Origin: Antedon mediterranea
Lineage: Eukaryota > Animalia > Echinodermata
Direction: 5' to 3'
Assembly: GCF_964355755.1 (NCBI RefSeq)
Contig: NC_092674.1
Location: 9,982,001 to 10,046,000 of the forward strand
DNA: 64,000 nt
Shown: positions 21,514-63,049 of the stretch, piece by piece
Layout of the letters: each line of letters starts with the position of its first letter
Position numbering within the stretch: the first letter of the stretch is position 1
Position numbers and translations under genes: made by a program
Notes under the pieces: model-generated
What the model was told of the DNA's origin: nothing
Seen by the model: only the letters and a program-made list of their open reading frames with translations
Database searches by the model: none

Positions 21514-21755
21514 CCTCGCAATCTGTTAAAAGTAAATAACATTGACGTTACTTTTTGGCTTTGTTGGTATACTGTACATGAAATTGGCAAATACACGTTT
21601 TCAAAATAAACTTAATCTGTCAAATTGTTTGTAGTAGTTTTGTAGTAGGCCTAGACATAATTATGTCTTGAGTTGAGGTGATTAAATTATTTTTTAAAAC
21701 CTTTCCAATATAGGCCTAGGCCCTATATTATTCTCTGCGTCTGGTCATGTTGATA

Positions 21756-22858: not shown

Positions 22859-23179
22859 ATGTTGATACCACACTACGATACCCAAGCACCACATTAAGGA
22901 ATAATAATAACCAAAGTGAGCGATCGAATGATAAACTAAACGGCCACAAGGGGTTTCGTACGAAACGACTCCGTAAAAAAAAACAGCCGTTCACTGGGCC
23001 CTACTTGGTGGACCGGCGTGAAGTTGGTTACTTATTCCTTATTCGATATTCAATTTTTTTTGTGAAGTTGGATCCTTATTCGACATTCACATTCACATGT
23101 ATGGGGCGCAATATGTGTAATATTTTAATTAAATGATTTTATACTTACGGCTTAGATTAACTAGGGCTATGATTTATAG

Positions 23180-36100: not shown

Positions 36101-39100
36101 AACTGGACCCTACTTGCCCCAACCCACGTATCTTCATCCCGGTCCATGCCGTTTATAACGTAATTATAGCCCTATATTTCATCAGGTTCTATTGCATTTT
36201 TTATAAAAACGTTTAAATTGTAGTAAGGTTTTAAAATGGCGTGAAATGGCAGCTAGACGGCATGGACCGGGTCAAGTGGTATTTTTCTGAAACTACTGGA
36301 CCCTACTAGCCTCAACCCATGTATCGTCATCCCGGTCTATGCCGTTTATAACGTAATTATAGCCCTATAAATCATTCGGTTATATTGCATTTTGTATTTA
36401 AAAAAAAATTAAATTGTAGTACCGGTAACGTTTTGAAATGGCGTAAAATGGCAGCTAGACGGCATGGACCGGGGCAAGTGGTATTTTTCTGAAACGACAG
36501 GACCCTACTAGCCCCAACCCATGTATCGTCATCCCGGTCCATGCCGTTTATAACGTAATTATAGCCCTATAAATCATACGGTTATATTGCATTTTTTATA
36601 AAAAAAAAACTTAAATTGTGGTAACGTTTTAAAATGGCGTAAAATGGCAGCTAGACGGCATGGACAGGGACAAGTGGTATATTTCTGAAACGACTGGACC
36701 CTACTAGCCCCAATCCATGTATCGTTATCCCGGTCCATGCCGTTTATAACGTAATTATAGCCCTATAAATCATTCGGTTATATTGCAATTTTTATAAAAA
36801 AAGACGTTAAATTGTATTAATGTTTTAAAATTGCGTAAAATGATAGCTAGACGGCATGGACCGGGGCAAGTGGTATTTTTCTGAATAGACTGGACCCTAC
36901 TTGCCCCAACCCCGTGTATCGTCTTCCCGGTCCATGCTGTTTATAACGTAATTATAGCCCTATAAATCATACGTTTATATTGCATTTTTTATGAAAACCT
37001 TAAATTGTAGTCGCGTTTTAAAATGGCGTAAAATGACAGCTAGACAGCATGGACCGGGGCAAGTGGTATTTTTCGAAAATGACTAGACCCTACTCGTCCC
37101 AACCCATGCATCGTCATCCCGGTCCATGCCGTTTATAACGTAATTATAGCCCTATAAATCATACGTTTATAGTGCATTTTTTATTTTTAAAAACCTTAAA
37201 TTGTAGTAACCTTTTAAAATGGCGTAAAATGACAGCTAGACGGCATGGACCGGGGCAAGTGGTACTTTTCTATTATGACTGGACCCTACTAGCACCAACC
37301 CATGTATCGTCATCCCGGTCCATGCCGTTTATAACGTAATTATAGCCCTATATATCATCCGGTTATGTTGCATTTTTTATAAAAAAAGTTAAATTGTAGT
37401 AACGTTTTAAAATGGCGTGAAATGGCCGCTAGACGGCATGAACCGGGTCAAGTGGTTTTTTCTGAAACAACTGGACCCTACTAGCCTCAACCCATGTATC
37501 GTCATTCCGGTCCATGCCGTTTATAACGTAATTATAGCCCTATAAACCATTCGGTTATATTGCATTTTTTATTTAAAAAAACGTTAAATTGTAGTAACGT
37601 TTTAAAATGGCGTAAAATGATAGCTACACGGCATGGACCGGGGCAAGCGGTATTTTTCTGAATTGACTGGACCCTACTTGCCCCAACCCATGTATCGTCA
37701 TCCCGGTCCATGCCGTTTATAACGTAATTATAGCCCTATAAATCATATGTTTACATTGCATTTTTTATGAAAACCTTAAATTGTAGTAACGTTTTAAAAT
37801 GGCGTATAATGACAGTTAGACGGCATGGACCGGGGTAAGAGGTATTTTTCTTAAATGACTGGACCCTACTCGCCCCAACCCATGTATCGTCATCCCGGTC
37901 CATGCCGTTTATAACGTAATTATAGCCCTATATTTCATCAGGTTATATTGCATTTTTTATAAAAACGTTAAATTGTAGTAAGGTTTTAAAATGGCGTGAA
38001 ATGGCAGCTAGACGGCATGGACCGGGTCAAGTGGTATTTTTCTGAAACTACTGGACCCTACTAGCCCCAACCCATGTATCGTCATCCCGGTCCATGCCGT
38101 TTATAACGTAATTATAGCCCTATAAATCATTCGGTTATATTGCATTTTGTATTTAAAAAAATTAAATTGTAGTAACAGTAACGTTTTAAAATGGCTTAAA
38201 ATGACAGCTAGACGCATGGACCGGGGCAAGTGGTATTTTTCTTAAATGAATGGACCCTATTCGCCCCAACCCATGTATCGTTGTCCCGGTCCATGCCGTT
38301 TATAACGTAATTATAGCCCTATATATCATCTTGTTATATTGCATTTTTTATTTAAAAAAACGTTAAATTGTAGTAACGTTTTGAAATGGCGTAAAATGAT
38401 AGCTAGACGACATGGACCGGGGCAAGTGGTATTTCCTGAATTGACTGGACCCTACTTGCCCCAACCGATGTATCGTCATCCCGGTCCATGCCGTTTATAA
38501 CGTAATTATAGCCCTATAAACCATTCGGTTATATTGCATTTTTTATTTAAAAAAACGTTAAATTGTAGTAACGTTTTAAAATGGCGTAAAATGATAGCTA
38601 GACGGCATGGACCGGGGCAAGTGGTATTTTTCTGAATTGACTGGACCCTACTTGCCCCAACCCATGTATCGTCATCCCGGTCCATGCCGTTTATAACGTA
38701 ATTATAGCCCTATAAATCATATGTTTACATTGCATTTTTTATGAAAACCTTAAATTGTAGTAACGTTTTAAAATGGCGTATAATGACAGCTAGACGGCAT
38801 GGACCGGGGTAAGAGGTATTTTTCTTAAATGACTGGACCCTACTTGCCCCAACCCATGTATCGTCATCCCGGTCCATGCCGTTTATAACGTAATTATAGC
38901 CCTATATTTCATTAGGTTATATTGCATTTTTTTGATAAAAACGTTAAATTGTAGTAAGGTTTTAAAATGGCGTGAAATGGCAGCTAGACGGCATGGACCG
39001 GGTCAAGTGGTATTTTTCTGAAACTACTGGACCCTACTAGCCCCAACCCATGTATCGTCATCCCGGTCCATGCCGTTTATAACGTAATTATAGCCCTATA

Positions 39101-40862
39101 AATCATTTGGTTATATTGCATTTTGTATTTAAAAAAATTAAATTGTAGTAACAGTAACGTTTTAAAATGGCTTAAAATGACAGCTAGACGGCATGGACCG
39201 GGGCAAGTGGTATTTTTCTGAAATGAATGGACCCTACTCGCCCAACCCATGTATCGTTATCTCGGTCCATGCCGTTTATAACGTAATTATAGCCCTATAT
39301 ATCATCCTGTTATATTGCATTTTTTATTTAAAAAAACGTGAAATTGTAGTAACGTTTTGAAATGGCGTAAAATGATAGCTAGACGGCATGGACCGGGGCA
39401 AGTGGTATTTTTCTGAATTGACTGGACCCTACTTGCCCCAACCGATGTATTGTCATCCCGGTCCATGCCGTTTATAACGTAATTATAGCCCTATAAATCA
39501 TTCGGTTATATTGCATCTTTTATATAAAAAAAACGTTAAATTGTAGTAACGTTTTAAAATGGCGTAAAATGATAGCTAGACGGCATGGACCGGGGCAAGT
39601 GGTATTTTTCTGAATTGACTGGACCCTACTTGCCCCAACCCATGTATCGTCATCCCGGTCCATGCCGTTTATAACGTAATTATAGCCCTATACATCATAC
39701 GTTTACATTGCATTTTTTATGAAAACCTTAAATTGTAGTAACGTTTTAAAATGGCGTAAAATGACAGCTAGACGGCATGGACCGGGGTAAGAGGTATTTT
39801 TCTGAAATGACTGGACCCTACTCGCCCCAACCCATGTATCGTCATCCCGGTCCATGCCGTTTATAACGTAATTATAGCCCTATAAATCATACGTTTACAT
39901 TGCATTTTTTATGAAAACCTTAAATTGTAGTAACGTTTTAAAATGGCGTAAAATGACAGCTAGACGGCATGGACCGGGGTAAGAGGTATTTTTCTGAAAT
40001 AACTGGATCCTACTCGCCCCAACCCATGTATCGTCATCCCGGTCCATGCCGTTTATAACGTAATTATAGCCCTATATTTCATCCGGTTATATTGCAATTT
40101 TTATAAAAACGTGAAATTGTAGTAAGGTTTTAAAATGGCGTGAAATGGCAGCTAGACGGCATGGACCGGGGTAAGAGGTATTTTTCTGAAATAACTGGAC
40201 CCTACTAGCCCCAACCCATGTATCGTCATCCCGGTCCATGCCGTTTATAACGTATTTATAGCCCTATAAATCATTCGGTTACATTGCATTTTTTATTTTT
40301 AAAAATTAAATTGTAGGACCGGTAACGTTTTAAAATGGCGTAAAATGACAGCTAGACGGCATGGACCGGGGCAAGTGGTATTTTTCTAAAATGACTGGAC
40401 CCTACTCGCCCCAACCCATGTATCGTCATTCCGGTCCATGCCGTTTATAACGTAATTATACCCCTATATATCATCCTGTTATATTGAATTTTTTATTTAA
40501 AAAAACGTTAAATTGTAGTAACGTTTTAAAATGGCGTAAAATGACAGCTAGTAGACGGCATGGACCGAGGCAAGTGGTATTTTTCTGAAACGACAGGACC
40601 CTACTAGCCCCAACCCATGTATCGTCATACCGGTCCATGCCGTTTATCACGTAATTATAGCCCTATAAATCATCCGGTTATATTGCATTTTTTATTTTAA
40701 AAAACGTTAAATTGTAGTAAGGTTTTAAAATGGCGTAAAATGACAGCTAGACGGCATGGACCGGGGCAAGTGGTATTTTTCTGAAACGACTGGACCCTAC
40801 TAGCCCGAACCCATGTATCGTCATCCCGGTCCATGCCGTTTATAACGAAGTTATAGCCCTAT
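33187..40862 (-). repeat. Satellite A, right arm in reverse orientation, about 40 copies
   Basis: Reverse complement of the same monomer (...CCCAACCCATGTATCGTCATCCCGGTCCATGCCGTTTATAACGTAATTATAGCCC...). Confidence 0.97.
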
Positions 40863-41036
40863 AAATCATAGCCCTAGTTAATCTAAGCCGTAAGTATAAA
40901 ATCATTTAATTAAAATAGTACACATATTGCGCCCCATACATGTGAATGTGAATGTCGAATAAGGATCCAACTTCACAAAAAAAATTGAATATCGAATAAG
41001 GAATAAGTAACCAACTTCACGCCGGTACTTGGTGGC

Positions 41037-41149
41037 AGGCCTAGGCTGAGCTAGCTAGGCCTAGCTAGTTATGCCTTGCCTAGGCCTAGTAAAATAGTAC
41101 TAGGCCCCCTAGTAGGCTAGGCTAGCCTAGCTAGCTAGGAAGTCTAGCC
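41037..41149. repeat. TAGGCCTAG/CTAG-rich low-complexity tract
   Basis: Dense overlapping TAGGCCTA and CTAGCTAG motifs, resuming at 42065-42102 after the inserted element. Confidence 0.7.
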
Positions 41150-42064
41150 GGCGCTAGTTCCGTTTCGCACCTGTCGTTTATTTCGACTCAAAATTGGTTA
41201 AGTAACTTTATCGTGAGTACCACACCTTAGAATTAGGCCTCAAAAATACTTTTACGAAGGAGATCACACAAAAAGTAAAAAATAAATCCTTTAAATTGAT
41301 GAATTTACAGACGTGTTTCTCGCACATCGGTTTGTGAATTTCGCATACTCCATGTTCAATGTTGTTGTTTTTATGGAGCGCCAAAAGAGCAATCATAATA
41401 GAGGGCTAAAAACTCAGTAAATTGCGTATATTTATTGCATTTATTGGTGAAAATTACGTTCAATTTATCATATTTTGTCAATGTCAATGCAACAAAAATA
41501 TTACTGTTGATACTGTACATGGTTTTTGCAGGAACTTTTAGGAATGAAAATCGACAAATTCATCATCATATTACATGTACTGCTGTAGGGGTATACCTGA
41601 TAGTGATACTAATCTAAATAATATTCCTCTTAGTCTAGGCTATAGTCTTACTCTTAGTTAGGCCTAGGGTTGGTTGCTATTTGAAAACAGCAAATTATTA
41701 GCATTAAAATGTTACAGCATTTTTATTGACAAAATATATTATAATTAAACGTGTATTTCAATAATAAATGCATCAAGACGCATTCCACTGAGTTTTTAAC
41801 CATCTATTGTTGTTGCTCTTTTGGCGCTCCATAGAAACGAAAATATTGAACTTCGAGTGTTAGCTAAATTCGCGAACGGTATGCGAGAATCATGTCTGTA
41901 AAATCATCAATTTAAGGATTTATTTGTTACTTTTTATGTGATTCTTCTTCATAAAAGTACTCATGAGGCCCAATTTTAAGGTGTGGTATTCACAATAAGT
42001 TGCTTAACAATTTGGAGTCAAAAGGAAGTCGAAATAAAAACAGGTGCGAAACGGAACTAGCGCC
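41150..42064. mobile_element. Foldback-like non-autonomous element, 0.9 kb, 8-bp TSD
   Basis: TIR GGCGCTAGTTCCGTTTCGCACCTG / CAGGTGCGAAACGGAACTAGCGCC extends imperfectly for ~245 bp. TSD GTCTAGCC at 41142-41149 and 42065-42072. Confidence 0.9.
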
Positions 42065-42298
42065 GTCTAGCCTAGCCTCAAGTATCTAGCCTAGGCCTAG
42101 AGGTCTACCTCTGTTCAGCGTGTGTATTCCCTGCTGTCATTCATAAAATCTATAGAGCGTATACCGCTTGTGTCAAGCTAGCCGACAATAAGCCAGCCCA
42201 CTTTTATTTTTTCCAGCCGACAATAAGTATGAAACGCCGTTTGTGTATTTTTCACATTTTCAGTATTGCTTAAGGTTTTTATAGTATTAGAAATTCAA

Positions 42299-45200
42299 TA
42301 TTTGTGAGAAAATGGCGGATTGCTCCTGGGAGTCACTTGGTGGGATTATACTAGGGGACCTCCTTAATCGTCAAGTATAAGTTAGAGTAGAACCGCTGGT
42401 CCTGTTTACTCAGCCCTCATCTTTGAAATTTGAGTGTAACTCAATTTCGATTTTTAATATTATAGTGAAATTTGATACTGTATTTGTGAGAAAATGGCGG
42501 ATTGCTCCTGGGAGTCACTTTGTGGGATTATACTAGGGTACCTCCTTAGTCGTCCAGTATAAGTTAGGGTGGGACCACTGGTCCCGTTTACTCAGCCCTC
42601 ATCTTTTAAATCTGAGTGTAACTCAATTACGATTTTTAATATTATAGTGAAATTTGATACTGTATTTGTGAGAAAATGGCGGATTGCTCCTGGGAGTCAC
42701 TTGGTGGAATTATACTTGGGTACCTCCTTAGTCGTCCAGTATAAGTTAGAGTAGGACCGCTGGTCCTGTTTACTCAGCCCTCATCTTTTAAATCTGAGTG
42801 TAACTCAATTACGATTTTTAATATTATAGTGAAATTTGATACTGTATTTGTGAGAAAATGGCGGATTGCTCCAGGGAGTCACTTGGTGGGATTATACTAA
42901 GGTACCTCTTTGGTCGTCCAGTATAAGTTAGAGTAGGACCGCTGGTCTTGTTTACTCAGCCCTCATCTTTTAAATCTGAGTGTAACTCAATTACGATTTT
43001 TAATATTATAGTAAAATTTGATACTGTATTTGTGAGAAAATGGCGGATTGCTCCTGTGAGTCACTTGGTTGGATTATACTATAGGGTACCTCCTTAGTCG
43101 TCCAGTATAAGTTAGAGTAGGACCGCTGGTCCTGTTTACTCAGCCCTCATCTTTTTTAATCTGAGTGTAACTCAATTACGATTTTAAATATTATAGTGAA
43201 ATTTGGTACTGTATTTGTGAGAAAACGGCGGATTGCTCCTGGGAGTCACTTGGTGGGATTATACTAGGGGACCTCCTTAATCGTCAAGTATAAGTTAGAG
43301 TAGAACCGCTGGTCCTGTTTACTCAGCCCTCATCTTTGAAATTTGAGTGTAACTCAATTTCGATTTTTAATATTATAGTGAAATTTGATACTGTATTTGT
43401 GAGAAAATGGCGGATTGCTCCTGGGAGTCACTTTGTGGGATTATACTAGGGTACCTCCTTAGTCGTCCAGTATAAGTTAGGGTGGGACCACTGGTCCCGT
43501 TTACTCAGCCCTCATCTTTTAAATCTGAGTGTAACTCAATTACGATTTTTAATATTATAGTGAAATTTGATACTGTATTTGTGAGAAAATGGCGGATTGC
43601 TCCTGGGAGTCACTTGGTGGAATTATACTTGGGTACCTCCTTAGTCGTCCAGTATAAGTTAGAGTAGGACCGCTGGTCCTGTTTACTCAGCCCTCATCTT
43701 TTAAATCTGAGTGTAACTCAATTACGATTTTTAATATTATAGTGAAATTTGATACTGTATTTGTGAGAAAATGGCGGATTGCTCCAGGGAGTCACTTGGT
43801 GGGATTATACTAAGGTACCTCTTTGGTCGTCCAGTATAAGTTAGAGTAGGACCGCTGGTCTTGTTTACTCAGCCCTCATCTTTTAAATCTGAGTGTAACT
43901 CAATTACGATTTTTAATATTATAGTAAAATTTGATACTGTATTTGTGAGAAAATGGCGGATTGCTCCTGTGAGTCACTTGGTTGGATTATACTATAGGGT
44001 ACCTCCTTAGTCGTCCAGTATAAGTTAGAGTAGGACCGCTGGTCCTGTTTACTCAGCCCTCATCTTTTTTAATCTGAGTGTAACTCAATTACGATTTTAA
44101 ATATTATAGTGAAATTTGGTACTGTATTTGTGAGAAAACGGCGGATTGCTCCTGGAAGTCACTCGGTGGGATTATACTAGGGTACCTCCTTAGTCGTCCA
44201 GTATAAGTTAGAGTAGGACCGCAGGTCTTGTTTACTCAGCCCTCATCTTTTAAATCTGAGTGTAACTCAATTACGACTTTTTAATATTATAGTGAAATTT
44301 GATACTGTATTTGTGAGAAAATGGCGGATTGCTCCTGGGAGTCACTTGGTGGGATTATACTAGGGTACCTCCTTAGTCGACCAGTATAAGATAGGGTGGG
44401 ACCACTGGTCCCGTTTACTCAGCCCTCATCTTTTAAATCTGAGTGTAACTCAATTACGATTTTTAATATTATAGTGAAATTTGATACTGTATTTGTGAGA
44501 AAATGGCGGATTGCTTCTGGGGGTCACTTGGTGGGATTATACTAGGGTACCTCCTTAGTCATCCAGTATAAGTTAGAGTAGGACCACTGGTCCTGTTTAC
44601 TCAGCCCTCATCTTTTAAATCTGAGTGTAACTCAATTACGATTTTAAATATTATAGTGAAATTTGGTACTGTATTTGTGAGAAAACGGCGGATTGCTCCT
44701 GGAAGTCACTCGGTGGGATTATACTAGGGTACCTTCTTAGTCGTCCAGTATAAGTTAGAGTAGGACCGCTGGTCTTGTTTACTCAGCCCTCATCTTTGAA
44801 ATCTGAGTGTAACTCAATTACGATTTTTAATATTATAGTGAAATTTGGTACTGTATTTGTGAGAAAACGGCGGATTGCTCCTGGAAGTCACTCGGTGGGA
44901 TTATACTAGGGTACCTCCTTAGTTGTCTAGTATAAGTTAGAGTAGGACCACTGGTCCTGTTTACTCAGCCCTCATCTTTTAAATCTGAGTGTAACTCAAT
45001 TACGATCTTTAATATTATAGTGAAATTTGATACTGTATTTGTTAGAAAATGGTGGATTGCTCCCAGGAGTCACTTGGTGGGATTATACTAGGGGACCTCC
45101 TTAATCATCCAGTGTAAGTTAGAGTATGACCGCTGGTCCCGTTTACTCAGCCCTCATCTTTTAAATCTGAGTGTAACTCAATTACGATTTTTTATATAGT

Positions 45201-48200
45201 GAAATTTGATACTGTATTTGTGAGAAAATGGCGGATTGCTCCTGGGAGTCACTTGGTGAGATTATACTAGGGTACCTCCTTAGTCGACCAGTATAAGTTA
45301 GGGTAGGACCGCTGGTCTTGTTTACTCAGCCCTCATCTTTTTAAATCTGAGTGTAACTCAATTACGATTTTAAATATTATAGTGAAATTTGGTACTGTAT
45401 TTGTGAGAAAACAGCGGATTGCTCCTGGAAGTCACTCGGTGGGATTATACTAGGGTACCTCCTTAGTCGTCCAGTATAAGTTAGAGTAGGACCGCTGGTC
45501 TTGTTTACTCAGCCCTCATATTTTAATCTGAGTGTAACTCAATTACGATTTTTAATATTATAGGGAAATTTGGTACTGTATTTGTGAGAAAACGGCGAAT
45601 TGCTCCTGGAAGTCACTCGGTGGGATTATACTAGGGTACCTCCTTAGTTGTCCAGTATTTAAGTGAGAGTAGGACCGCTGGTTATGTTTACTCAGCCCTC
45701 ATCTTTTAAATCTGAGTGTAACTCAATTACGATCTTTATTATTATAGTGAAATTTGATACTGTATTTGTGAGAAAATGGCGGATTGCTCCTGGGAGTCAC
45801 TTGGTGGGATTATACTAGGGGACCTCCTTAATCGTCCAGTATAAGATAGAGTAGGACCGCTGGTCCCGTTTACTCAGCCCTCATCTTTTAAATCTGAGTG
45901 TAACTCAATTACGATTTTTTATATAGTGAAATTTGATACTGTATTTGTAAGAAAATGGCGGATTGCTCCTGGGTGTCACTTGGTGGGATTATACTAGGGG
46001 ATCTCCTTAATCGTCCAGTATAAGTTAGAGTAGGACCGCTGGTCCCGTTTACTCAGCCCTCATCTTTTAAATCTGAGTGTAACTCAATTACAATTTTTTA
46101 TATAGTGAAATTTGATACTGTATTTGTGAGAAAATGGCGGATTGCTCCTGGGAGTCACTTGGTGAGATTATACTAGGGTACCTCCTTAGTCGTCCAGTAT
46201 AAGTTAGAGTAGGACCGCTGGTCTTGTTTACTCAGCCCTCATCTTTTAAATCTGAGTGTAACTCAATTACGATTTTAAATATTATAGTGAAATTTGGTAC
46301 TGTATTTGTGAGAAAACGGCGGATTGCTCCTGGAAGTCACTCGGTGGGATTATACTAGGGTACCTCTTTAGTTGTCCAGTATCAGTTAGAGTAGGACCGC
46401 TGGTCCTGTTTACTCAGCCCTCATCTTTTAAATCTGAGTGTAACTCAATTACGATTTTTAATATTATAGTGAAATTTGATACTGTATTTGTGAGAAAATG
46501 GCGGATTGCTCCTGGGAGTCACTTGGTGGGATTATACTAAGGTACCTCTTTGGTCGTCCAGTATAAGTTAGAGTAGGACCGCTGGTCTTGTTTACTCAGC
46601 CCTCATCTTTTAAATCTGAGTGTAACTCAATTACGATTTTTAATATTATAGTAAAATTTGATACTGTATTTGTGAGAAAATGGCGGATTGCTCCTGTGAG
46701 TCACTTGGTTGGATTATACTAGGGTACCTCCTTAGTCGTCCAGTATAAGTTAGAGTAGGACCGCTAGTCCTGTTTACTCAGCCCTCATCTTTTTAAATCT
46801 GAGTGTAACTCAATTACGATTTTAAATATTATAGTGAAATTTGGTACTGTATTTGTGAGAAAACGGCGGATTGCTCCTGGAAGTCACTCGGTGGGATTAT
46901 ACTAGGGTACCTCCTTAGTCGTCCAGTATAAGTTAGAGTAGGACCGCAGGTCTTGTTTACTCAGCCCTCATCTTTTAAATCTGAGTGTAACTCAATTACG
47001 ACTTTTTAATATTATAGTGAAATTTGATACTGTATTTGTGAGAAAATGGCGGATTGCTCCTGGGAGTCACTTGGTGGGATTATACTAGGGTACCTCCTTA
47101 GTCGTTCAGTATAAGTTAGGGTGGGACCACTGGTCCCGTTTACTCAGCCCTCATCTTTTAAATCTGAGTGTAACTCAATTACGATTTTTAATATTATAGT
47201 GAAATTTGATACTGTATTTGTGAGAAAATGGCGGATTGCTCCCAGGAGTCACTTGGTGGGATTATACTAGGGGACCTCCTTAATCGTCCAGTATAAGTTA
47301 GAGTTGGACCGCTGGTTCCGTTTACTCAGCCCTCATCTTTTAAATCTGAGTGTAACTCAATTACAATTTTTTATATAGTGAAATTTGATACTGTATTTGT
47401 GAGAAAATGGCGGATTGCTCCTGGGAGTCACTTGGTGGGATTATACTAGGGTACCTCCTTAGTCGTCCAGTATAAGTTAGAGTAGGACCGCTGGTCCTGT
47501 TTACTCAGCCCTCATCTTTTAAATCTGAGTGTAACTCAATTACGATTTTAAATATTAAAGTGAAATTTGGTACTGTATTTGTGAGAAAACGGCGGATTGC
47601 TCCTGGAAGTCACTCGGTGGGATTATACTAGGGTACCTCCTTAGTTGTCCAGTATCAGTTAGAGTTGGACCGCTGGTCTTGTTTACTCAGCCCTCATCTT
47701 TTAAATCTGAGTGTAACTCAATTACGATTTTTAATATTATAGTGAAATTTGATACCGGTACTGTATTTGTGAGAAAATGGCGGATTGCTCCTGGGAGACA
47801 CTTGGTGGGATTATACTTAGGGTACCTCCTTAGTCGTCCAGTATAAGATAGGGTGGGACCACTGGTCCCGTTTACTCAGCCCTCATCTTTTAAATCTGAG
47901 TGTAACTCAATTACGATTTTTAATATTATAGTGAAATTTGATACTGTATTTGTGAGAAAATGGCGGATTGCTTCTGGGGGTCACTTGGTGGGATTATACT
48001 AGGGTACCTCCTTAGTCATCCAGTATAAGTTAGAGTAGGACCACTGGTCCTGTTTACTCAGCCCTCATCTTTTAAATCTGAGTGTAACTCAATTACGATT
48101 TTAAATATTATAGTGAAATTTGGTACTGTATTTGTGAGAAAACGGCGGATTGCTCCTGGAAGTCACTCGGTGGGATTATACTAGGGTACCTTCTTAGTCG

Positions 48201-51200
48201 TCCAGTATAAGTTACAGTAGGGCCGCTGGTCTTGTTTACTCAGCCCTCTTCTTTGAAATCTGAGTGTAACTCAATTACGATGTTTAATATTATAGTGAAA
48301 TTTGGTACTGTATTTGTGAGAAAACGGCGGATTGCTCCTGGAAGTCACTCGGTGGGATTATACTAGGGTACCTCCTTAGTTTTCCAGTATAAGTTAGAGT
48401 AGGACCACTGGTCCTGTTTACTCAGCCCTCATCTTTTAAATCTGAGTGTAACTCAATTACGATCTTTAATATTATAGTGAAATTTGATACTGTATTTGTT
48501 AGAAAATGGCGGATTGCTCCTGGGAGTCACTTGGTGGGATTATACTAGGGGACCTCCTTAATCATCCAGTGTAAGTTAGAGTATGACCGCTGGTCCCGTT
48601 TACTCAGCCCTCATCTTTTAAATCTGAGTGTAACTCAATTACGATTTTTTATATAGTGAAATTTGATACTGTATTTGTGAGAAAATGGCGGATTGCTCCT
48701 GGGAGTCACTTGGTGAGATTATACTAGGGTACCTCTTTAGTCGACCAGTATAAGTTAGGGTAGGACCGCTGGTCCTGTTTACTCAGCCCTCATCTTTTTA
48801 AATCTGAGTGTAACTCAATTACGATTTTAAATATTATAGTGAAATTTGGTACTGTATTTGTGAGAAAACAGCGGATTGCTCCTGGAAGTCACTCGGTGGG
48901 ATTATACTAGGGTACCTCCTTAGTCGTCCAGTATAAGTTAGAGTAGGACCGCTGGTCTTGTTTACTCAGCCCTCATATTTTAATCTGAGTGTAACTCAAT
49001 TACGATTTTAATATTATAGGGAAATTTGGTACTGTATTTGTGAGAAAACGGCGAATTGCTCCTGGAAGTCACTCGGTGGGATTATACTAGGGTACCTCCT
49101 TAGTTGTCCAGTATAAGTGAGAGTAGGACCGCTGGTTATGTTTACTCAGCCCTCATCTTTTAAATCTGAGTGTAACTCAATTACGATCTTTATTATTATA
49201 GTGAAATTTGATACTGTATTTGTGAGAAAATGGCGGATTGCTCCTGGGAGTCACTTGGTGGGATTATACTAGGGGACCTCCTTAATCGTCCAGTATAAGT
49301 TAGAGTAGGACCGCTGGTCCCGTTTACTCAGCCCTCATCTTTTAAATCTGAGTGTAACTCAATTACGATTTTTTATATAGTGAAATTTGATACTGTATTT
49401 GTAAGAAAATGGCGGATTGCTCCTGGGTGTCACTTGGTGGGATTATACTAAGGTACCTCCTTAGTCGTCCAGTATAAGTTAGAGTAGGACCGCTGGTCCT
49501 GTTTACCCAGCCCTCATCTTTTTAAATCTGAGTGTAACTCAATTACGATTTTTAATATTATAGTGATATTTGGTACTGTATTTGTGAGAAAACGGCGGAT
49601 TGCTCCTGGAAGTCACTCGGTGGGATTATACTAGGGTACCTCCTTAGTCGTCCAGTATAAGTTAGAGTAGGACCGCTGGTCTTGTTTACTCAGCCCTCAT
49701 CTTTGAAATCTGAGTGTAACTCAATTACGATTTTTAATATTATAGTGAAATTTGGTACTGTATTTGTAAGAAAACGGCGGATTGCTCCTGGAAGTCACTC
49801 GGTGGGATTATACTAGGGTACCTCCTCTTAGTTGTCCAGTATAAGTTAGAGTAGGACCACTGGTCTTGTTTACTCAGCCCTCATCTTTTAAATCTGAGTG
49901 TAACTCAATTACGATCTTTAATATTATAGTAAAATTTGATACTGTATTTGTGAGAAAATGGCGGATTGCTCCTGGGAGTCACTTGGTGGGATTATACTAG
50001 GGGACCTCCTTAATCGTCCAGCGTAAGTTAGAGTAGGACCGCTGGTCCTGTTTACTCAGCCCTCATCTTTTAAATCTGAGTGTAACTCAATTACGATTTT
50101 TAATATTATAGTAAAATTTGATACTGTATTTGTGAGAAAATGGCGGATTGCTCCTGTGAGTCACTTGGTTGGATTATACTAGGGTACCTCCTTAGTCTTC
50201 CAGTGCAGTATAAGTTAGAGTAGGACCGCTGGTCCTGTTTACTCAGCCCTCATCTTTTTAAATCTGAGTGTAACTCAATTACGATTTTAAATATTATAGT
50301 GAAATTTGGTACTGTATTTGTGAGAAAACGGCGGATTGCTCCTGGAAGTCACTCGGTGGGATTATACTAGGGTACCTCCTTAGTCGTCCAGTATAAGTTA
50401 GAGTAGGACCGCAGGTCTTGTTTACTCAGCCCTCATCTTTTAAATCTGAGTGTAACTCAATTACGACTTTTTAATATTATAGTGAAATTTGATACTGTAT
50501 TTTTGAGAAAATGGCGGATTGCTCCTGGGAGTCATTTGGTGGGATTATACTAGGGTACCTCCTTAGTCGTCCAGTATAAGTTAGGGTGGGACCACTGGTC
50601 CCGTTTACTCAGCCCTCATCTTTTAAATCTGAGTGTAACTCAATTACGATTTTTAATATTATAGTGAAATTTGATACTGTATTTGTGAGAAAATGGCGGA
50701 TTGCTCCCAGGAGTCACTTGGTGGGATTATACTAGGGGATCTCCTTAATCGTCCAGTATAAGTTAGAGTAGGACCGCTGGTCCCGTTTACTCAGCCCTCA
50801 TCTTTTAAATCTGAGTGTAACTCAATTACAATTTTTTATATAGTGAAATTTGATACTGTATTTGTGAGAAAATGGCGGATTGCTCCTGGGATTCACTTGG
50901 TGGGATTATACTAGGGTACCTCCTTAGTCGTCCAGTATAAGTTAGAGTAGGACCGCTGGTCTTGTTTACTCAGCCCTCATCTTTTAAATCTGAGTGTAAC
51001 TCAATTACGATTTTAAATATTATAGTGAAATTTGGTACTGTATTTGTGAGAAAACGGCGGATTGCTCCTGGAAGTCACTCGGTGGGATTATACTAGGGTA
51101 CCTCTTTAGTTGTCCAGTATCAGTTAGAGTAGGACCGCTGGTCTTGTTTACTCAGCCCTCATCTTTTAAATCTGAGTGTAACTCAATTACGATTTTTAAT

Positions 51201-54200
51201 ATTATAGTGAAATTTGATACTGTATTTGTGAGAAAATGGCGGATTGCTCCTGGGAGACACTTGGTGGGATTATACTAGGGTACCTCCTTAGTCGTCCAGT
51301 ATAAGATAGGGTGGGACCACTGGTCCCGTTTACTCAGCCCTCATCTTTTAAATCTGAGTGTAACTCAATTACGATTTTTAATATTATAGTGAAATTTGAT
51401 ACTGTATTTGTGAGAAAATGGCGGATTAATCCTGGGGGTCACTTGGTGGGATTATACTAGGGTACCTCCTTAGTCATCCAGTATAAGTTAGAGTAGGACC
51501 ACTGGTCCTGTTTACTCAGCCCTCATCTTTTAAATCTGAGTGTAACTCAATTACGATTTTAAATATTATAGTGAAATTTGGTACTGTATTTGTGAGAAAA
51601 TGGCGGATTGCTCCTGGGAGTCACTTGGTGGGATTATACTAGGGTACCTCCTTAGTCGTCCAGTATAAGTTAGAGTATGACCGCTGGTCCCGTTTACTCA
51701 GCCCTCTTCTTTTAAATCTGAGTGTAACTCAATTACGATTTTTTATATAGTGAAATTTGATACTGTATTTGTGAGAAAATGGCGGATTGCTCCTGAGATT
51801 CACTTGGTGAAATTATACTAGGGTACCTCCTTAGTCGACCAGTATAAGTTAGAGTAGGACCGCTGGTTCTGTTTACTCAGCCCTCGTTTTTTTAAATCTG
51901 AGTGTAACTCAATTACGATTTTAAATATTATAGTGAAATTTGGTACTGTATTTGTGAGAAAACGGCGGATTGCTCCTGGAAGTCACTCGGTGGGATTATA
52001 CTAGGGTACCTCCTTAGTCGTCCAGTATAAGTTAGAGTAAGACCGCTGGTCTTGTTGACTCAGCCCTCATATTTTAAATCTGAGTGTAACTCAATTACGA
52101 TTTTTAATATTATAGGGAAATTTGGTACTGTATTTGTGAGAAAACGGCGAATTGCTCATGGAAGTCACTCGGTGGGATTATACTAGGGTACCTCTTTAGT
52201 TGTCCAGTATAAGTGAGAGTAGGACCGCTGGTTATGTTTACTCAGCCCTCATCTTTTAAATCTGAGTGTAACTCAATTACGATCTTTAATATTATAGTGA
52301 AATTTGATACTGTATTTGTGAGAAAATGGCGGATTGCTCCTGGGATTCACTTGGTGGGATTTTACTAGGGGACCTCCTTAATCGTCCAGTATAAGTTAGA
52401 GTAGGACCGCTGGTCCCGTTTACTCAGCCCTCATCTTTTAAATCTGAGTGTAACTCAATTACGATTTTTTATATAGTGAAATTTGATACTGTATTTGTGA
52501 GAAAATGGCGGATTGCTCCTGGGTGTCACTTGGTGGGATTATACTAGGGTACCTCCTTAGTCGTCCAGTATAAGTTAGAGTAGGACCGCTGGTCCTGTTT
52601 ACTCAGCCCTCATCTTTTTAAATCTGAGTGTAACTCAATTACGATTTTAAATATTATAGTGAAATTTGGTACTGTATTTGTGAGAAAACGGCGGATTGCT
52701 CCTGGAAGTCACTCGGTGGGATTATACTAGGGTACCACCTTAGTCGTCCAGTATAAGTTAGAGTAGGACCGCTGGTCTTGTTTACTCAGCCCTCATCTTT
52801 GAAATCTGAGTGTAACTCAATTACGATTTTTAATAATATAGTGAAATTTGGTACTGTATTTGTGAGAAAACGGCGGATTGCTCCTGGAAGTCACTCGGTG
52901 CGATTATACTAGGGTACCTCCTCTTAGTTGTCCAGTATAAGTTAGAGTAGGACCACTGGTCCTGTTTACTCAGCCCTCATCTTTTAAATCTGAGTGTAAC
53001 TCAATTACGATCTTTAATATTATAGTGAAATTTGATACTGTATTTGTGAGAAAATGGCGGATTGCTCCTGGGAGTCACTTGGTGGGATTATACTAGGGGA
53101 CCTCCCTAATCGTCCAGTGTAAGTTAGAGTAGGACCGCTGGTCCCGTTTACTCAGCCCTCATCTTTTATATCTGAGTGTAACTCAATAACGATTTTTTAT
53201 ATAGTGAAATTTGATACTGTATTTGTGAGAAAATGGCGGATTGCTCCTGAGAGTCACTTGGTGAGATTATACTAAGGTACCTCCTTAGTCGTCCAGTTTA
53301 AGTTAGGGTGGGACCACTGGTCCCGTTTACTCAGCCCTCATCTTTTAAATCTGAGTGTAACTCAATTACGATTTTAAATATTATAGTGAAATTTGGTACT
53401 GTATTTGTGAGAAAACGGCGGATTGCTCCTGGAAGTCACTCGGTGGGATTATACTAGGGTACCTCCTTAGTCGTCCAGTATAAGTTAGAGTAGGACCGCT
53501 GGTTTTGTTTACTCAGCCCTCATATTTTAAATCTGAGTGTAACTCAATTACGATTTTTAATATTATAGGAAAATTTGGTACTGTATTTGTGAGAAAACGG
53601 CGAATTGCTCCTGGAAGTCACTCGGTGGGATTATACTAGGGTACCTCCTTAGTTAGTTGTCCAGTATAAGTAAAGAGTAGGACCGCTGGTTATGTTTACT
53701 CAGCCCTCATCTTTTAAATCTGAGTGTAACTCAATTACGATTTTTAATATTATAGTGAAATTTGATACTGTATTTGTGAGAAAATGGCGGATTGCTCCTG
53801 GGAGTCACTTGGTGGGATTATACTAGGGTACCTCCTTAGTCGTCCAGTATAAGTTAGAGTAGGACCGCTTGTCCTGTTTACTCAGCCCTCATCTTTTTAA
53901 ATCTGAGTGTAACTCAATTACGATTTTAAATATTATAGTGAAATTTGGTACTGTATTTGTGAGAAAACGGCGGATTGCTCCTGGAAGTCACTCGGTGGGA
54001 TTATACTAGGGTACCTCCTTAGTCGTCCAGTATAAGTTAGAGTAGGACCGCTGGTCTTGTTTACTCAGCCCTCATCTTTTAAATCTGAGTGTAACTCAAT
54101 TACGATTTTTAATATTATAGTGAAATTTGGTACTGTATTTGTGAGAAAACGGCGGATTGCTCCTGGAAGTCACTCGGTGGGATTATACTAGGGTACCTCC

Positions 54201-54415
54201 GTAGTCGTCCAGTATAAGTTAGGGTGGGACCACTGGTCCCGTTTACTCAGCCCTCATCTTTTAAATCTGAGTGTAACTCAATTACGATTTTTTATATAGT
54301 GAAATTTGAAACTGTATTTGTGAGAAAATGGCGAATTGCTCCTGGGAGTCACTTGGTGGGATTATACTAGGGTACCTCCTTAGTCGTCCAGTATAAGTTA
54401 GAGTAGGACCACTGG
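42299..54415 (+). repeat. Satellite B, ~180-184-bp monomer, about 66 copies
   Basis: TTTGTGAGAAAATGGCGGATTGCTCC at 42301, 42483 and onward. No visible similarity to satellite A beyond a short motif. Confidence 0.97.
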
Positions 54416-54677
54416 ACAACTAAGGAGGTACCCTAGTATAATCCCACCGAGAGTGACTTCCAGGAGCAATCCGCCGTTTTCTCACAAATACAGTACCAAA
54501 TTTCACTATAATATTTAAAATCGTAATTGAGTTACACTCAGATTTAAAAAGATGAGGGCTGCTGAGTAAACAGGACCAGCGGTCCTACTCTAACTTATAC
54601 TGGACGACTAAGGAGGTACCCTAGTATAATCCCACCAAGTGACTCCCAGGAGCAATCCGCCATTTTCTCACAAATAT
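54411..54677 (-). repeat. Satellite B, inverted arm, about 1.4 monomers
   Basis: Reverse-complement monomer runs directly into the right outer TIR. Confidence 0.92.
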
Positions 54678-55369
54678 TGAATTTCTAATACTATAAAAAC
54701 CTTAAGTAATACTGAAAATGTGAAAAATACACAAACGGCGTTTCATAGTTATTGTCGGCTGGAAAAAATAAAAGTGGGCTGGCTTATTGTCGGCTGGCTT
54801 ATTGTCGGCTAGCTTGACACAAGCGCGTATACTCATGTTTTTTCGTTCAGAAGGAAGGAAGGAAGCATGCAGCAGCTCCATATATGGTTTTATTTGAATA
54901 CTGCCATCTATAGTTTCTCAGAGTGGTTTGCTTGCATCATCAGTGGGTGGAGAGGAGGTGGTAGGTGGTACTGGTGGTTATTTAAGGGGCGCATTTGATA
55001 ATCGTGCCAAAACTAGCTGTGATATTATAAAAAAAGATATGTTTTTCGATCTCTACTTAATTAAATACATTATTAACAATTGTAGGGGTTTACCGTCGAA
55101 AATTGATGGGACCATAATGTTCACTGCATCATCTCAATCATCATAGATATACAAATTACTCATTATCATGATCACTATCCTCATCACCAAATTATTTGGG
55201 GAACAATGATTATTGAGTAACTTGTATACCTCCACGATCTAGTTTTAATAATTACCTTTTTAGGCCTAACCACATCACAAAAACTGAATCAGCTTGACTG
55301 GAATCTTGTTTATTCGTTCATCGTATGTGTAATCGTAATTCCATCAAATGAAATGTGTATGGCATAGTG

Positions 55370-56430
55370 TTTCATTTGTATGTCTGTACATGCTACCTTG
55401 GTATGGAACGGTGTTTCGTCTGTCTGTCGGTATGCTCCTACCGTATTTGTATTGAACAGTCTTTCGTCTGTGTTCTCATTTGATATGTCATGAAACAATT
55501 GTTTCTTCTGTCTTTCCATATGCTCCAACTTGTATAGAACAGTCTTTCGTCTGTATGTATTCCTTTGGTACGACATCATGACAGAATAATTGTTTTGTCT
55601 GTCTGTCCGTATGCTCCTGTTTGTATGGAACAATCTTACGTCTGTCTGTGTGCTCCTTTGGTACGTCATGAGATTAATTGTTTTGTCTGTCTGTCCGTAT
55701 GCTCCTATTTGTATGGAACAGTCTTTCGTCTGTCTGTGTTCTCCTTTGGTACGTCATGAGAGAATTGTTTCGTCTGTCTGTCCATGCTCCTATTTGTATG
55801 GATAAGTCTTTCGTCTGTCTGTGTTCACCTTTGGTACGTCGTGAGAGAATTGTTTCGTCTGTCTGTCCGTATGCTCCTATTTGTATGGAACAGTCTTTCG
55901 TCTGTGTCCGTATGCTCATATTTGTATGGAACAGTCTTTCGTCTGTCTGTGTGCTCCTTTGGTACGTCATGACAGAATTGTTTCGTCTGTCTGTCCGTAT
56001 GCTCCTATTTGTATGGAACAGTCTTTCGTCTGTCTGTGTGCTCTTTTGGTACGTCATGACAGAATTGTTTCGTCTGTCTGTCTGTATGCTCCTATTTGTA
56101 TGGAACAGTCTTTCGTCTGTCTGTGTGCTCTTTTGTACGTCATGAGAGAATTTTTCGTCTGTCTCTCCGTATGCTCCTATTTGTATTAAACAGTTTTTCG
56201 TCTGTCTGTGTGCTCCTTTAATTCATGACAGAATTGTTTCGTCTGTCTGTCCATATGCTCCTATTTGTGTGGAGCAGTCTTTTGTCTGTCTGTGTGCTCC
56301 TTTATTTAATTTATGACAGAATTCATCTCGTCTGTCTGTCCGTATGCTCCTATTTGTATGGACCAGTCTTTCGTCTGTCTGTGTGCTCCTTTGGTACGTC
56401 ATGATAATTGTTTTGTCGGTCTGTCTTTCC
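55370..56430. repeat. ~87-bp minisatellite with GTCT subrepeats, about 11-12 copies
   Basis: Unit ATGACAGAATTGTTTCGTCTGTCTGTCCGTATGCTCCTATTTGTATGGAACAGTCTTTCGTCTGTCTGTGTGCTCCTTTGGTACGTC, degenerate at both edges. Confidence 0.9.
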
Positions 56431-56784: not shown

Positions 56785-57292
56785 AAATAGAGGACATCTC
56801 ATGTGACGGTTTGTATATGATGAGACCCCAGATTACATCTATCAGAGTACATTAATAAATAGAGGGCATCTCATGTGACGGTTTGTATATGATGAGACCC
56901 CAGATTACATCTATCAGAGTACATTAATAAATAGAGGGCATCTCATGTGACGGTTTGTATATGATGAGACCCCAGATTACATCTATCAGAGTACATTAAT
57001 AAATAGAGGGCATCTCATGTGACGGTTTGTATATGATGAGACCCCAGATTACATCTATCAGAGTACATTAATAAATAGAGGGTATCTCATGTGACGGTTT
57101 GTATATGATGAGACCCCAGATTACATCTATCAGAGTACATTAATAAATAGAGGGCATCTCATGTGACGGTTTGTATATGATGAGACCCCAGATTACATCT
57201 ATCAGAGTACATTAATAAATAGAGGGCATCTCATGTGACGGTTTGTATATGATGAGACCCCAGATTACATCTATCAGAGTACATTAATAAAT
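56785..57292. repeat. 72-bp tandem repeat, 7 nearly identical copies
   Basis: AAATAGAGGGCATCTCATGTGACGG... at 56785, 56857, 56929, 57001, 57073, 57145 and 57217. Confidence 0.95.
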
Positions 57293-58235
57293 ATTTTGTT
57301 TACAAATAAAATGAGAACAAATAGTAATGACCATTTTGAATATAAATTAATCATTACAAAGAGTAATAAAAACAAATGCATTTATCAGATACATACAACA
57401 TAAAAACAGTATATAGCTTTACTTCAACCGTTTATTTGTATATTCTAGTAGATACATTAAGATAAGGCCATATTGTAGCCTACTATACGGTAATATACTG
57501 TATGCATTACAACTTCTTTACCGATACTATAGCCACCTACTCTGTCGTTTTGTATACAATGATCATTCAAAATACCTTCACCAAAATACAGTAAACCGAT
57601 AAGTATAATAATTAAACAGTCTTTCTAAATACGTATCATCTTGCGTAGATGCGTACCAAAATATGTGCAGCAGCACAAATTCTGGATAATTCACTTATTA
57701 ATTAACTGTGGGCTTATTTTGATTACCACGTTTTGGACTGTTGGGATAAGAATCAATTTGATAGTTTGGATGAAAATGTGTCGTAACGTCACAAAAAAAA
57801 CATAACTTGACGACGACAAACTGTAACGTATAATTGTGATTCCACCCCACCCCATTTATCAGCATGTTTACATGTGGTTTTTTTTCACTGGTTATCGCCA
57901 TGAACATCAGATCATACGTTTCTCTTCATTCTTAATAATATAGCCTATAAGTCTGTCTCGTTCACTAAAAATAAGAATTTCTGCCAGTAATTTAGGTCAC
58001 TGAAATAATTTAATTTGGGACTCATAATACTAGTCAAACTAATGCTAGGCATTATAGTCATGTTTAGCTTGTTGGTGATTGATCTGTATAATTATACAAA
58101 CACATGCAGAGTAAGCAAAAAAATAATGAAAAACTTAAATCAAAACTCTGATCATAAAGAAACTATTCACATCATTCATCTGATGGGACTCTTTTACTAT
58201 TTTAATGAAGCACAATATGCCTATAATCAAATTAT

Positions 58236-58554
58236 TTACATTAACTGATACCGTAGCTTGCAATTCTGCATGTGAAGTGTTTGCAACTTAGGTGCCTTTT
58301 TCAAGAAGGTGACCAGTAAAGTAGCATTAATGTCACCTAAATCATTATTGCCAATATAAAGTTCTTGTATACGCTATCATCATTTCATTCATTACGTCAC
58401 CTGATAGTTTGCAACCATTCATACCAAGTAAAGTACCATCAATGTCACTGATACAATTACCCCAAATAGAAAGTTCTTGTAGTGCCAACTCATTTACTCC
58501 ATACACTCTCATCATTTCATTCATTACGTCACCTGATATGTTGCAACTGTTCAT
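58236..58554 (-). pseudogene. Out-of-frame, decayed LRR tail of the NLR gene
   Basis: After the premature stop, LRR sequence continues in other frames (MNSCNISGD...ELSIWGNCISDIDGTLLG, then IQELYIGNNDLGDINATLLVTFLKKAPKLQTLHMQNCKL) with internal deletions. Confidence 0.75.
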
Positions 58555-60480
58555 TCCAATTTAAGCCGCTTAGGACACTTACTCAGAAAAGTACCAAGTA
58601 TAGTACCATCAATGTCACTGATACAATTACCACAAATAGAAAGTTCTTGTAGTGTTAACTCATTTACTCCATACACTTTCATCATTTCATTCATTACGTC
58701 ACCTGATATGTTGCAACTGGTCATGCTAAGTTTAAGCAGCTTAGGACACTTACTCAGAAAAGTACCAAGTAAATTACCATTAATGTCACCGAAACAATTA
58801 CCCGCAATATAAAGTACTTGTAGTGCTAACTCAGCTTTTCCATACACTCTCATTATTTCATTCATTACGTCACCTGATATGTTGCAACTGCTCATGTAAA
58901 GTTTAAGCAGCTTAGGACACTTACTCAGAAAAGTACCAAGTAAAGTACCATCAATGTCACTGATACAATTACCCCTAATAGAAAGTTCTTGTAGTGTTAA
59001 CTCATTTACTCCATACAGTTTCATCATTTCATTCATTACGTCACCTGATATGTTGCAACTGTTCATGTCAAGTTTAAGCAGCTTAGGACACTTACTCAGA
59101 AAAGTACCAAGTAAAGTACCATCAATGTCACTGATACAATTACCACTAATAGAAAGTTCTTGTAGTGCTAACTCATTTACTCCATACAGTTTCATCATTT
59201 CATTCATTACTTCACCTGATATGTTGCAACTCCTCATGTAAAGTTTAAGCAGCTTAGGACACTTACTCAGAAAAGTACCAAGTAAAGTACCATCAATGTC
59301 ACCGATACAATTACCCCTAATAAAAAGTTCTTGTAGTGTTAACTCATTTACTCCATACACTTTCATCATTTCTTTCATTACGTCACCTGATATGTTGCAA
59401 CTGTTCATGCCAAGTTTAAGCAGCTTAGGACACTTACTCAGAAAAGTACCAAGTAAAGTACCATCAATGTCACTGATACAATTACCCCAAATAGAAAGTT
59501 CTTGTAGTGCTAACTCATTTACTCCATACACTCTCATCATTTCATTCATTACGACACCTGATATGTTGCAACTGTTCATGTAAAGTTTAAGCAGCTTAGG
59601 ACACCTACTCAGAAAAGTACCAAGTAAAGTACCATCAATGTCACTGATACAATTACCCCAAATAGAAAGTTCTTGTAGTGTTAACTCATTTACTCCATAC
59701 AGTTTCATCATTTCATTCATTACGTCACCTGATATGTTGCAACTGTCCATGTCAAGTTTAATCAGCTTAGGGCACTTACTCAGAAATGTACCAAGTAAAG
59801 TACCATCAATGTCACTGATACAATTACCCAAAATAGAAAGTTCTTGTAGTGCTAACTCAGCTTTTCCATACACTTTCATCATTTCATTCATTACGTCACC
59901 TGATATGTTGCAACTGTTCATGTCAAGTTCAAGCAGCTTAGGGCACTTACTCAGAAAAGTACCAAGTAAAGTACCATCAATGTCACTGATACAATTACCA
60001 CGAATAAAAAGTTCTTGTAGTGTTAACTCATTTACTCCATACACTCTCATTATTTTATTCATTACGTCACCTGATATGTTGCAACTGTTCATGTAAAGTT
60101 TAAGCAGCTTAGGACACTTACTCAGAAAATTACCAAGTAAAGTACCATCAATGTCACTGATACAATTACCCCTAATAGAAAGTTCTTGTAGTGTTAACTC
60201 ATTTACTCCATACACTTTCATCATTTCATTCATTACGTCACCTGATATGTTGCAACTGTTCATGTCAAGTTTAAGCAGCTTAGGGCACTTACTCAGAAAT
60301 GTACCAAGTAAAGTACCATTAATGTCACCGAAACAATTACCCGCAATATAAAGTACTTGTAGTGCTAACTCAGCTTTTCCATACACTCTCATTATTTCAT
60401 TCATTACGTCACCTGATATGTTGCAATTAATCATAGAAAGTACAACCAATTTAGGAAACGTATTCAAGAAAGTACCCAGT
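58430..60480 (-). repeat. Coding 171-bp tandem repeat (57-aa double LRR unit), about 12 units
   Basis: Period of 171 bp is visible directly in the DNA. Each unit is a pair of 28/29-residue ribonuclease-inhibitor-type LRRs. Confidence 0.95.
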
Positions 60481-62419: not shown

Positions 62420-63049
62420 CTGTAAAATAAGCAAAATAATTCGATCAACCAATATCATTTATAAAAAGCCTTTTTTTGGACATAATATGATATGTATACT
62501 CTAAAAAGACTAACAGGAAGTTGACCAAATATAACTGTAAATATGGACATCTGTTTAAACAATGATGATAATCAAGAACCCCTGTGCGTAATGTTTGTTT
62601 AGCAACCATTCACAGAATATCGTTTGGGAGGAAGGAATTACTTTTCTTTGATGATACAAAGCCTCCCGGATCAATTGCACATGTATAACTATGCCTACGG
62701 TTCATTATAAACAAAGAGAAAAAAATACCCTAATACGCAAAAATACATATGTTCAATTTTAGATAATAATTTATTTAAAATTCATAAATACCAATGCCAT
62801 AAACTTATGTTTAACCAATATACCAAATGAATTCTATATTTAACACTTTTACTCTCAGTACCGGTACTATCCACATGGCGTTATTTTATGCAATATGATA
62901 TAGATAAATTCACATTTGTATCACATGTATCTCCAATATTATAAAAGCTTAGATTACTATTTGGTTAATACTAAAAGGGTCGATAAACGGATGTAAAAGA
63001 TGTTGCATCACACATTTGACACTATACTAGACAAATTGTAGATACCACT

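Follow-up and report, generated by a model that had tools for sequence, protein, structure and literature searches.

A foldback element with unequal satellite-bearing arms

We analyzed a window of 64,000 nucleotides from the feather star Antedon mediterranea, a crinoid echinoderm (chromosome-level assembly GCF_964355755.1, contig NC_092674.1, positions 9,982,001 to 10,046,000 of the forward strand), in which positions 42165-54825 are occupied by a foldback element of 12,661 bp. Read from the left, the element comprises an outer terminal inverted repeat (TIR) domain of 134 bp (42165-42298, plus strand), a left arm formed by an array of 182-bp monomers (42299-54415, plus strand; 66 whole monomers and 101 nt), a right arm of inverted monomers (54411-54676, minus strand; one 186-nt monomer and 80 nt), and a right outer TIR domain of 149 bp (54677-54825, minus strand). 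The left array has a period of 182 and 66.6 copies, and the right arm holds ~1.4 copies in the opposite orientation. Apart from an additional 15-mer in the right domain, 2 substitutions (1.5%) separate the two outer domains. This 15-bp subrepeat, with the core AGCCGACAATAAG, occurs twice in the left domain (42180 and 42215) and three times in the right (54810, 54795, and 54760). Both ends of the element are intact and bracket the array, and the window contains no N bases. These results agree with the initial annotation, which had proposed the same boundaries, the inverted outer TIRs, the asymmetry of the arms, and the additional subrepeat on the right.

Furthermore, the heptamer CGTATAC abuts both tips of the element, at 42158-42164 on the left and 54826-54832 on the right (both plus strand). 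With the tip placed at 42165, it forms a perfect 7-bp target-site duplication (TSD); with the tip one base inward, at 42166, the duplication extends to 9 bp with one mismatch (GCGTATACC at 42157-42165 and GCGTATACT at 54825-54833). Inspection of the sequence indicated that an 8-bp duplication with a one-base indel is likewise compatible. When flank positions were paired at random 200,000 times, a similar repeat turned up in 0.02% of the pairs with the tip fixed, in 0.11% with the tip allowed to shift by +/-2, and in 0.26% when repeats of 9-12 bp with one mismatch were also accepted. The flanking repeat, which had likewise been reported before, is confirmed, with a chance probability of ~0.001-0.003.

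Long inverted termini, each with a unique outer domain followed by tandem repeats, are arranged here as in Tetris, a foldback element of Drosophila virilis, and a direct repeat of 7-9 bp abuts both tips (chance at most 0.003). It is structure alone that files the element as a foldback. We rejected the idea that, as in Tetris, the outer domain gave rise to the monomer, the similarity between the two being no better than that of shuffled sequences (285 of 500 and 258 of 500 shuffles reached the scores). An Rfam search with 41900-43000, which covers the outer end and the first monomers, returned no matches at E values up to 1.

The ends of the element are multi-copy

We compared contigs of four of 13 public runs (X9, X13, X1, and X7) with positions 41900-42470; X13 and X1 carry organism labels other than that of X9, and X7 contributed only two contigs. 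Depths were summed over contigs with boundary bins omitted, and such sums do not equal copy numbers. In X9, the unique flank had a depth of 266, and one contig (record 24, 42040-42192) crossed the left junction with no differences. Summed depth was 2.8e4-1.4e5 in the five bins lying wholly within the outer domain and 1.8-3.7e6 in the eight bins of the monomer. The outer end is at least 100-fold deeper than the unique flank in this run, which argues against a single-copy end. In X13 and X1, we detected diverged versions of the outer end and the monomer, together with extra variant subrepeats, and tandem monomer joints were present in X13. Moreover, four X13 contigs, which begin at 42166 and not at 42165, run out of the element's tip into different flanking sequence; the left flank from ~42112 was covered by one X13 contig. 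The outer domain is thus multi-copy with different flanks, and no second whole copy was found among the contigs.

The median ratio of monomer depth to end depth was ~25 in X9 (13-132), ~1.6 in X13 (0.7-8.8), and ~3.3 in X1 (1.7-6.4), the latter two values possibly being lowered by divergence from the query stretch. When X9 monomer variants were set against the array (15 of the 23 rows shown were compared), most pointed in the same direction and three did not. Adenine at 42425 accounted for 45% of X9 depth and cytosine at 42361 for 20%, and both were absent from all 66 array monomers; cytosine at 42430 accounted for 30% and was present in 64 of 66. The outer end at this locus carries the minority base G at 42219, where A makes up 75% of X9 depth. 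Judged from these variants, the family likely comprises at least two subfamilies.

Two further observations were made with these sequences. At monomer position 42336-42342, some X9 monomers from elsewhere hold 38 additional, self-complementary nt bounded by 7 repeated bases, at ~4x the unique-flank depth; this may represent a very small inverted-repeat element that inserted into the satellite. Exact 18-mer matches in JGI metagenomes were taken as chance: none of the 5 loci (48-59% GC) matched past 29 bases of the end.

The arms meet mid-monomer at a short microhomology

The element has no middle domain, coding or otherwise unique, and 0 bases of 42299-54676 lie outside monomer matches. Both arms stop mid-monomer, at monomer offsets 101 and 80, and meet at 54411-54415 in the 5-bp microhomology ACTGG, which is common to both. 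The right arm was closest to an inner pair of left-arm monomers, 29-30, with 5 differences in 260 positions; the left tip showed 18 differences in 260, and the adjacent pair 66-67 showed 21 in 257. Because the right arm is a mirror neither of monomers 67/66 nor of the left tip, two pre-existing arms were joined at the centre, and the junction probably arose through a microhomology-mediated deletion of the middle.

The centre can also be described as an inverted microhomology of 5 bp that encloses a 16-nt loop. This is the geometry of fold-back priming, and no transposase is in view; the locus might accordingly be a local inverted duplication of a satellite edge by fold-back repair, flanked by a chance repeat. 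Such repair, however, predicts a mirror copy of monomers 67/66 or of the left tip, and the best match is the inner pair. In addition, the boundary of the repeat is exactly where the copy ends, and a direct repeat lies there (p at most 0.003); the high-copy end occurs with other flanks. We consider this origin highly improbable. The initial annotation had itself named a single-copy TIR with a chance repeat and a local inverted duplication as the case against it, and the deep ends, the odds of the flank repeat, and the mismatch of the right arm reject that case.

Alternatively, a middle-less, asymmetric 12-kb element could have moved whole, with neither deletion nor growth at the site. The intact tips and target duplication fit such a donor, as do a neighboring 18-kb foldback family, described below, that is also middle-less, and the elements of Tribolium with arms of >11 kb, which are argued to spread by transposition (PMC12581902). 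In contrast, a second copy with the same centre was not seen, and none of the 6 joints listed changed strand, a weak test in that the query monomer differs from the centre monomers at several bases. We regard a donor that was already lopsided as unlikely.

The left arm grew by block duplication

The left arm is non-coding, with a longest stop-free run of 63 codons, and its monomers show a mean pairwise difference of 6.0%. Its growth by block duplication is seen directly. A recent tandem duplication of five monomers lies at 42299-44124 (plus strand), where monomers 1-5 equal 6-10 over 913 bp with one difference. An older block duplication falls within 44308-49395 (plus strand), with monomers 12-20 (44308-45941) matched by 31-39 (47764-49395) at 0-4 differences each, and smaller blocks pair monomers 9-12 with 24-27, 26-29 with 45-48, and 21-23 with 47-49. 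In total, collinear runs hold 25 monomer pairs, against a mean of 0.4 and a maximum of 6 in 500 shuffles of monomer order. Unequal exchange or slippage would be the probable cause of the blocks.

Block duplication is nevertheless not an account of the whole arm, because linking monomers at <=3 differences leaves 31 groups and monomer diversity exceeds the 1.5% divergence of the ends. The comparison of 6% with 1.5% suggests that a varied array is older than the insertion and that the short arm is the one that was cut down. The asymmetry had previously been attributed either to one-sided expansion or to a central deletion. Both have left traces: the mid-monomer ends and the microhomology agree with a deletion, and the left arm visibly contains block duplications. 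The two causes are therefore not mutually exclusive. The initial annotation further suggested a possible step from transposon to plain satellite; in this copy, both ends are intact.

We also weighed whether growth of one side alone could suffice. The element would then have inserted with ~2-3 monomers per arm, the left arm would have expanded ~25-fold in place, and the deletion would have taken only the middle. Blocks of 3-9 monomers are indeed duplicated in the left arm, the low monomer-to-end ratios of X13 and X1 suggest short ancestral arms, and the array lacks the X9-common variants 42425 A and 42361 C, as local homogenization would give. However, the recent collinear blocks comprise only 25 monomer pairs with 31 groups remaining, and the monomers are more diverse than the ends. 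Furthermore, X9 has ~25 monomers per end (13-132), so that long arms look normal in the species, and the existence of two subfamilies would equally explain the missing variants, given that the outer end too has the minority G at 42219. Such growth alone is conceivable but doubtful as an explanation.

An assembly artefact would be another source of asymmetry: the right arm could have been collapsed, or the left arm inflated. Sequencing through long palindromes is difficult, a single position in 913 separates monomers 1-5 from 6-10, and contig support is limited to the left junction. On the other hand, there is no N gap, the microhomology at the centre is clean, contigs reproduce the left junction, and the monomers outside the 913-bp block are individually distinct, with few identical pairs. 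We judge an artefact to be quite improbable.

Candidate superfamilies

Within the foldback reading, we considered three superfamily assignments. Mutator-like elements (MULEs) have TSDs of 8-11 bp, and the MULE family Rehavkus has 9 bp (PMC6446971). At this locus, a 9-bp duplication needs one mismatch and an 8-bp duplication one indel, the perfect form being 7 bp. Long TIRs with short subterminal repeats, a trait not exclusive to MULEs, are present. A Mutator-type origin (8-9 bp) is favored by the 9-15-bp subterminal repeats known from Aedes MULEs, by the 18-kb neighbor, which has a perfect 9-mer, and by the X13 contigs starting at 42166, a start that could equally reflect a different tip base in the X13 organism; we give this assignment a modest preference.

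The perfect 7-mer would fit the P superfamily, although a single insertion leaves the position of the tip uncertain and the four X13 contigs begin at 42166, not at 42165. The P-superfamily foldback Galileo has 7-bp TSDs, sometimes 8 bp, and ~210-bp internal tandem repeats whose number is unequal between the TIRs of one copy (PMC3573991, PMC4168063). By analogy with it, and given that the 7-bp reading needs no mutation, a P/Galileo-type element is a possible, though rather unlikely, assignment. CGTATAC does not fit the Galileo target GTANTAC, agreeing with it at 3 of the 6 fixed positions whichever strand is read, again at a single site. Elements of the P type start with CA at their ends. A central TA is preferred by Buster-type hATs, and other superfamilies such as hAT appear improbable here.

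A model for the history of the element

Collectively, our findings support, at a probability of about 0.8, the idea that the element is a non-autonomous foldback DNA transposon that has lost its middle and probably much of its right arm, and whose left arm has been block-duplicated. In this model, a transposase encoded elsewhere would have inserted the element here, presumably through cut-and-paste movement, and duplicated the target. The element would have arrived with varied and fairly long arms; a deletion joined at the microhomology would have removed the middle together with, probably, a large part of the right arm, and the left arm would have kept growing. The 15-bp subrepeats are putative transposase-binding sites, by analogy with Muta1, a long-TIR MULE of Aedes aegypti.

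Several points weigh against this model. Neither a transposase tied to the ends nor a second full copy or an empty site was seen in the window and the contigs. Contig confirmation covers the left junction, and the right junction and the centre rest on the assembly; X9 may be the source sample of the window and hence not independent of it. The low ratios in X13 and X1 may mean that short arms are ancestral, in which case the right arm was never long. The 1.5% divergence of the ends corresponds to 2 differences in 134 bp, and it is possible that most of the growth of the left arm followed the insertion. The near-identical 913-bp duplication could be an assembly error. Finally, the perfect duplication of 7 bp lies outside the 8-11 bp range of MULEs.

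A second foldback family and other neighbors in the window

A neighboring foldback of 18,015 bp occupies 23012-41026 and belongs to another family, its arms holding ~51 and ~39 monomers of ~192-196 bp. It is flanked by a perfect 9-bp duplication, ACTTGGTGG, and has near-identical outer ends with 10-bp subrepeats and no middle domain. Comparison of the outer domain and monomer of the 12.7-kb element with this neighbor revealed no meaningful similarity (best E 0.05). With no shared end or monomer, the two represent separate families, as the initial annotation had maintained; these unrelated families lie 1.1 kb apart. The arms of the 18-kb element do not mirror each other's monomer order, and each carries block duplications of its own. 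We rejected a copying of entire arms as mirror images in this element, since the longest exact match between the left and right arms spans 140 bp, compared with 534 bp within the left arm.

The monomer had also been described as nucleosome-sized. This holds for its length only; a ~10-bp periodicity of AA/TT/TA is weak in the 182-bp monomer (p 0.034) and absent in the monomer of the 18-kb element (p 0.40). A hairpin-type 182-bp monomer was likewise discarded, since its folding energy of -14.4 is nothing special against shuffled sequences (mean -13.1, sd 3.0); the monomer of the 18-kb element folds better (-25.1 versus shuffled -16.1, sd 3.4). An in-register cruciform at the centre was also considered, as the two elements join at nearly the same phase of the monomer, with offset differences of 21 and 27 nt; however, 30% of the possible 5-bp inverted microhomologies fall within 21 nt, and at a joint chance of ~0.07 by hand estimate, this is not evidence.

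Other repeats surround the two foldbacks. Between them, at 41117-42100, lies a degenerate palindromic element of ~1 kb resembling a MITE (a miniature transposable element with inverted repeats), with arms 78% alike; it is high-copy in X9 and X13. A relative at 21879-22494, left of the 18-kb foldback, is enclosed by inverted ends with ~15-bp subrepeats (21772-22826; 34 nt 100% complementary), which are possibly a third small foldback. Further small MITE-like inverted-repeat elements are found at 1495-1664, 6407-6554, 7365-7524, and 19882-20293. To the right of the 12.7-kb element are a modular ~43/87-bp minisatellite (55412-56425) and a 72-bp array of 7.1 copies that are 99% identical (56785-57293).

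Two gene regions were also recognized. A NACHT-LRR (NLR) gene at 58551-62444 (minus strand) belongs to a large crinoid NLR family, and its LRR region is a 171-bp tandem array of 12.1 copies with 91% identity; over the 480 residues compared, its reading frame is 100% identical to a protein recorded in NCBI/UniRef for Antedon mediterranea. Exon fragments at 18857-21525 (minus strand) resemble a UbiA/COQ2-type prenyltransferase, with a weak Pfam UbiA match below the cut-off (E 0.00035) confined to 18860-19159; the 18-kb foldback begins ~1.5 kb beyond them.

Significance and comparison with known systems

The element is a new family of a known design: a real, well-preserved, non-autonomous foldback of which we found no description in the literature searched. 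Likewise, no description of Antedon repeat families was found in a literature search that excluded Repbase and most subscription papers. The conversion of transposon-borne repeats into satellite DNA is under active study, and direct cases come mainly from Drosophila and Tribolium. To these the locus adds one from an echinoderm, with intact ends, an intact target duplication, and a hint of lineage-specific array growth; taken alone, it confirms a known route and opens no new one. If the duplication is truly 7 bp, the element would represent a deuterostome foldback of the P/Galileo type with arms of satellite length, and no such case was found in the literature searched. We also entertain, as a rather long shot, that in this feather star lineage the 182-bp satellite resides mostly inside transposon ends (~25 monomers per end in X9, against ~2-3 under related organism labels) and that palindromes without a middle, 10-20 kb long and belonging to at least two unrelated families, are themselves the mobile units; if so, the satellite would spread through cut-and-paste movement of giant non-coding hairpins.

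The initial annotation inferred a general class of satellite-carrying transposons in this genome. As a novelty this is not supported: foldbacks of this kind, with several families per genome and arrays that swell into satellite, have been described before in Drosophila (Tetris) and Tribolium (Rehavkus). Tetris is described as a non-coding foldback with a unique flanking domain followed by variable ~220-bp tandem repeats, in arrays of up to 66 copies with ~94% identity that expanded within the element; the account given reports no autonomous copy and bases the Mutator assignment on the TSD only (PMC4079207). The present element shares with it the non-coding foldback structure, the outer domain with a long tandem array, and a copy devoid of transposase. 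In contrast to the description of Tetris, where TSDs are 8-10 bp, complete copies have an inner and a middle domain, and the repeat shares 37 bp with the flanking domain (PMC4079207), the element described here has a duplication of 7-9 bp, no middle, and a monomer whose similarity to the outer domain does not exceed that of shuffles.

Galileo is likewise reported to have foldback-like TIRs and frequent derivatives consisting of two TIRs only (PMC3573991, PMC4168063), and the element resembles it in its foldback TIRs, in the unequal number of tandem repeats per TIR, and in its two-TIR-only form. Unlike Galileo, for which these sources give 0-3 repeats and the target GTANTAC within a palindrome, it has tens of repeats, and CGTATAC is not symmetric about its centre. 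Among the long-TIR MULEs of Aedes aegypti, 10 of 12 families are listed with subterminal repeats of 9-15 bp (15 bp in Muta5) (PMC5225508), and a natural Muta1 derivative has 3 and 7 such repeats at its ends (PMC5499845). A short terminal motif followed by subterminal repeats that are unequal between the ends is common to Muta1, Muta5, and the element studied here; the Aedes elements differ, as described, in TIRs of ~150 bp, TSDs of 8-9 bp, and the lack of a long satellite array (PMC5225508, PMC5499845). The 12-bp subterminal repeats of Muta1 were shown experimentally to strengthen transposase binding and excision (PMC5499845, PMC5225508), which by analogy may offer an experimental reason why such ends tolerate extra repeats, the repeats tested being 12 bp and not 180 bp.

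Rehavkus is defined by its transposase, with a PHD finger, together with its 9-bp TSD, and is tabulated in arthropods and annelids only (PMC6446971); the copy described here has no coding middle to set against this definition. In Tribolium, several Rehavkus and Rehavkus-like families are reported per genome, with satellite repeats in their inverted termini; 6-8 repeats in one species contrast with up to 50 in its sibling, arms exceed 11 kb, and one repeat has expanded into an 80.5-kb array (PMC12581902). The supplementary figures of that study may already show lopsided or middle-less copies. As far as it is described there, the Tribolium case closely parallels both the presence of two families in this window and the lower monomer-to-end ratio in the related organisms.

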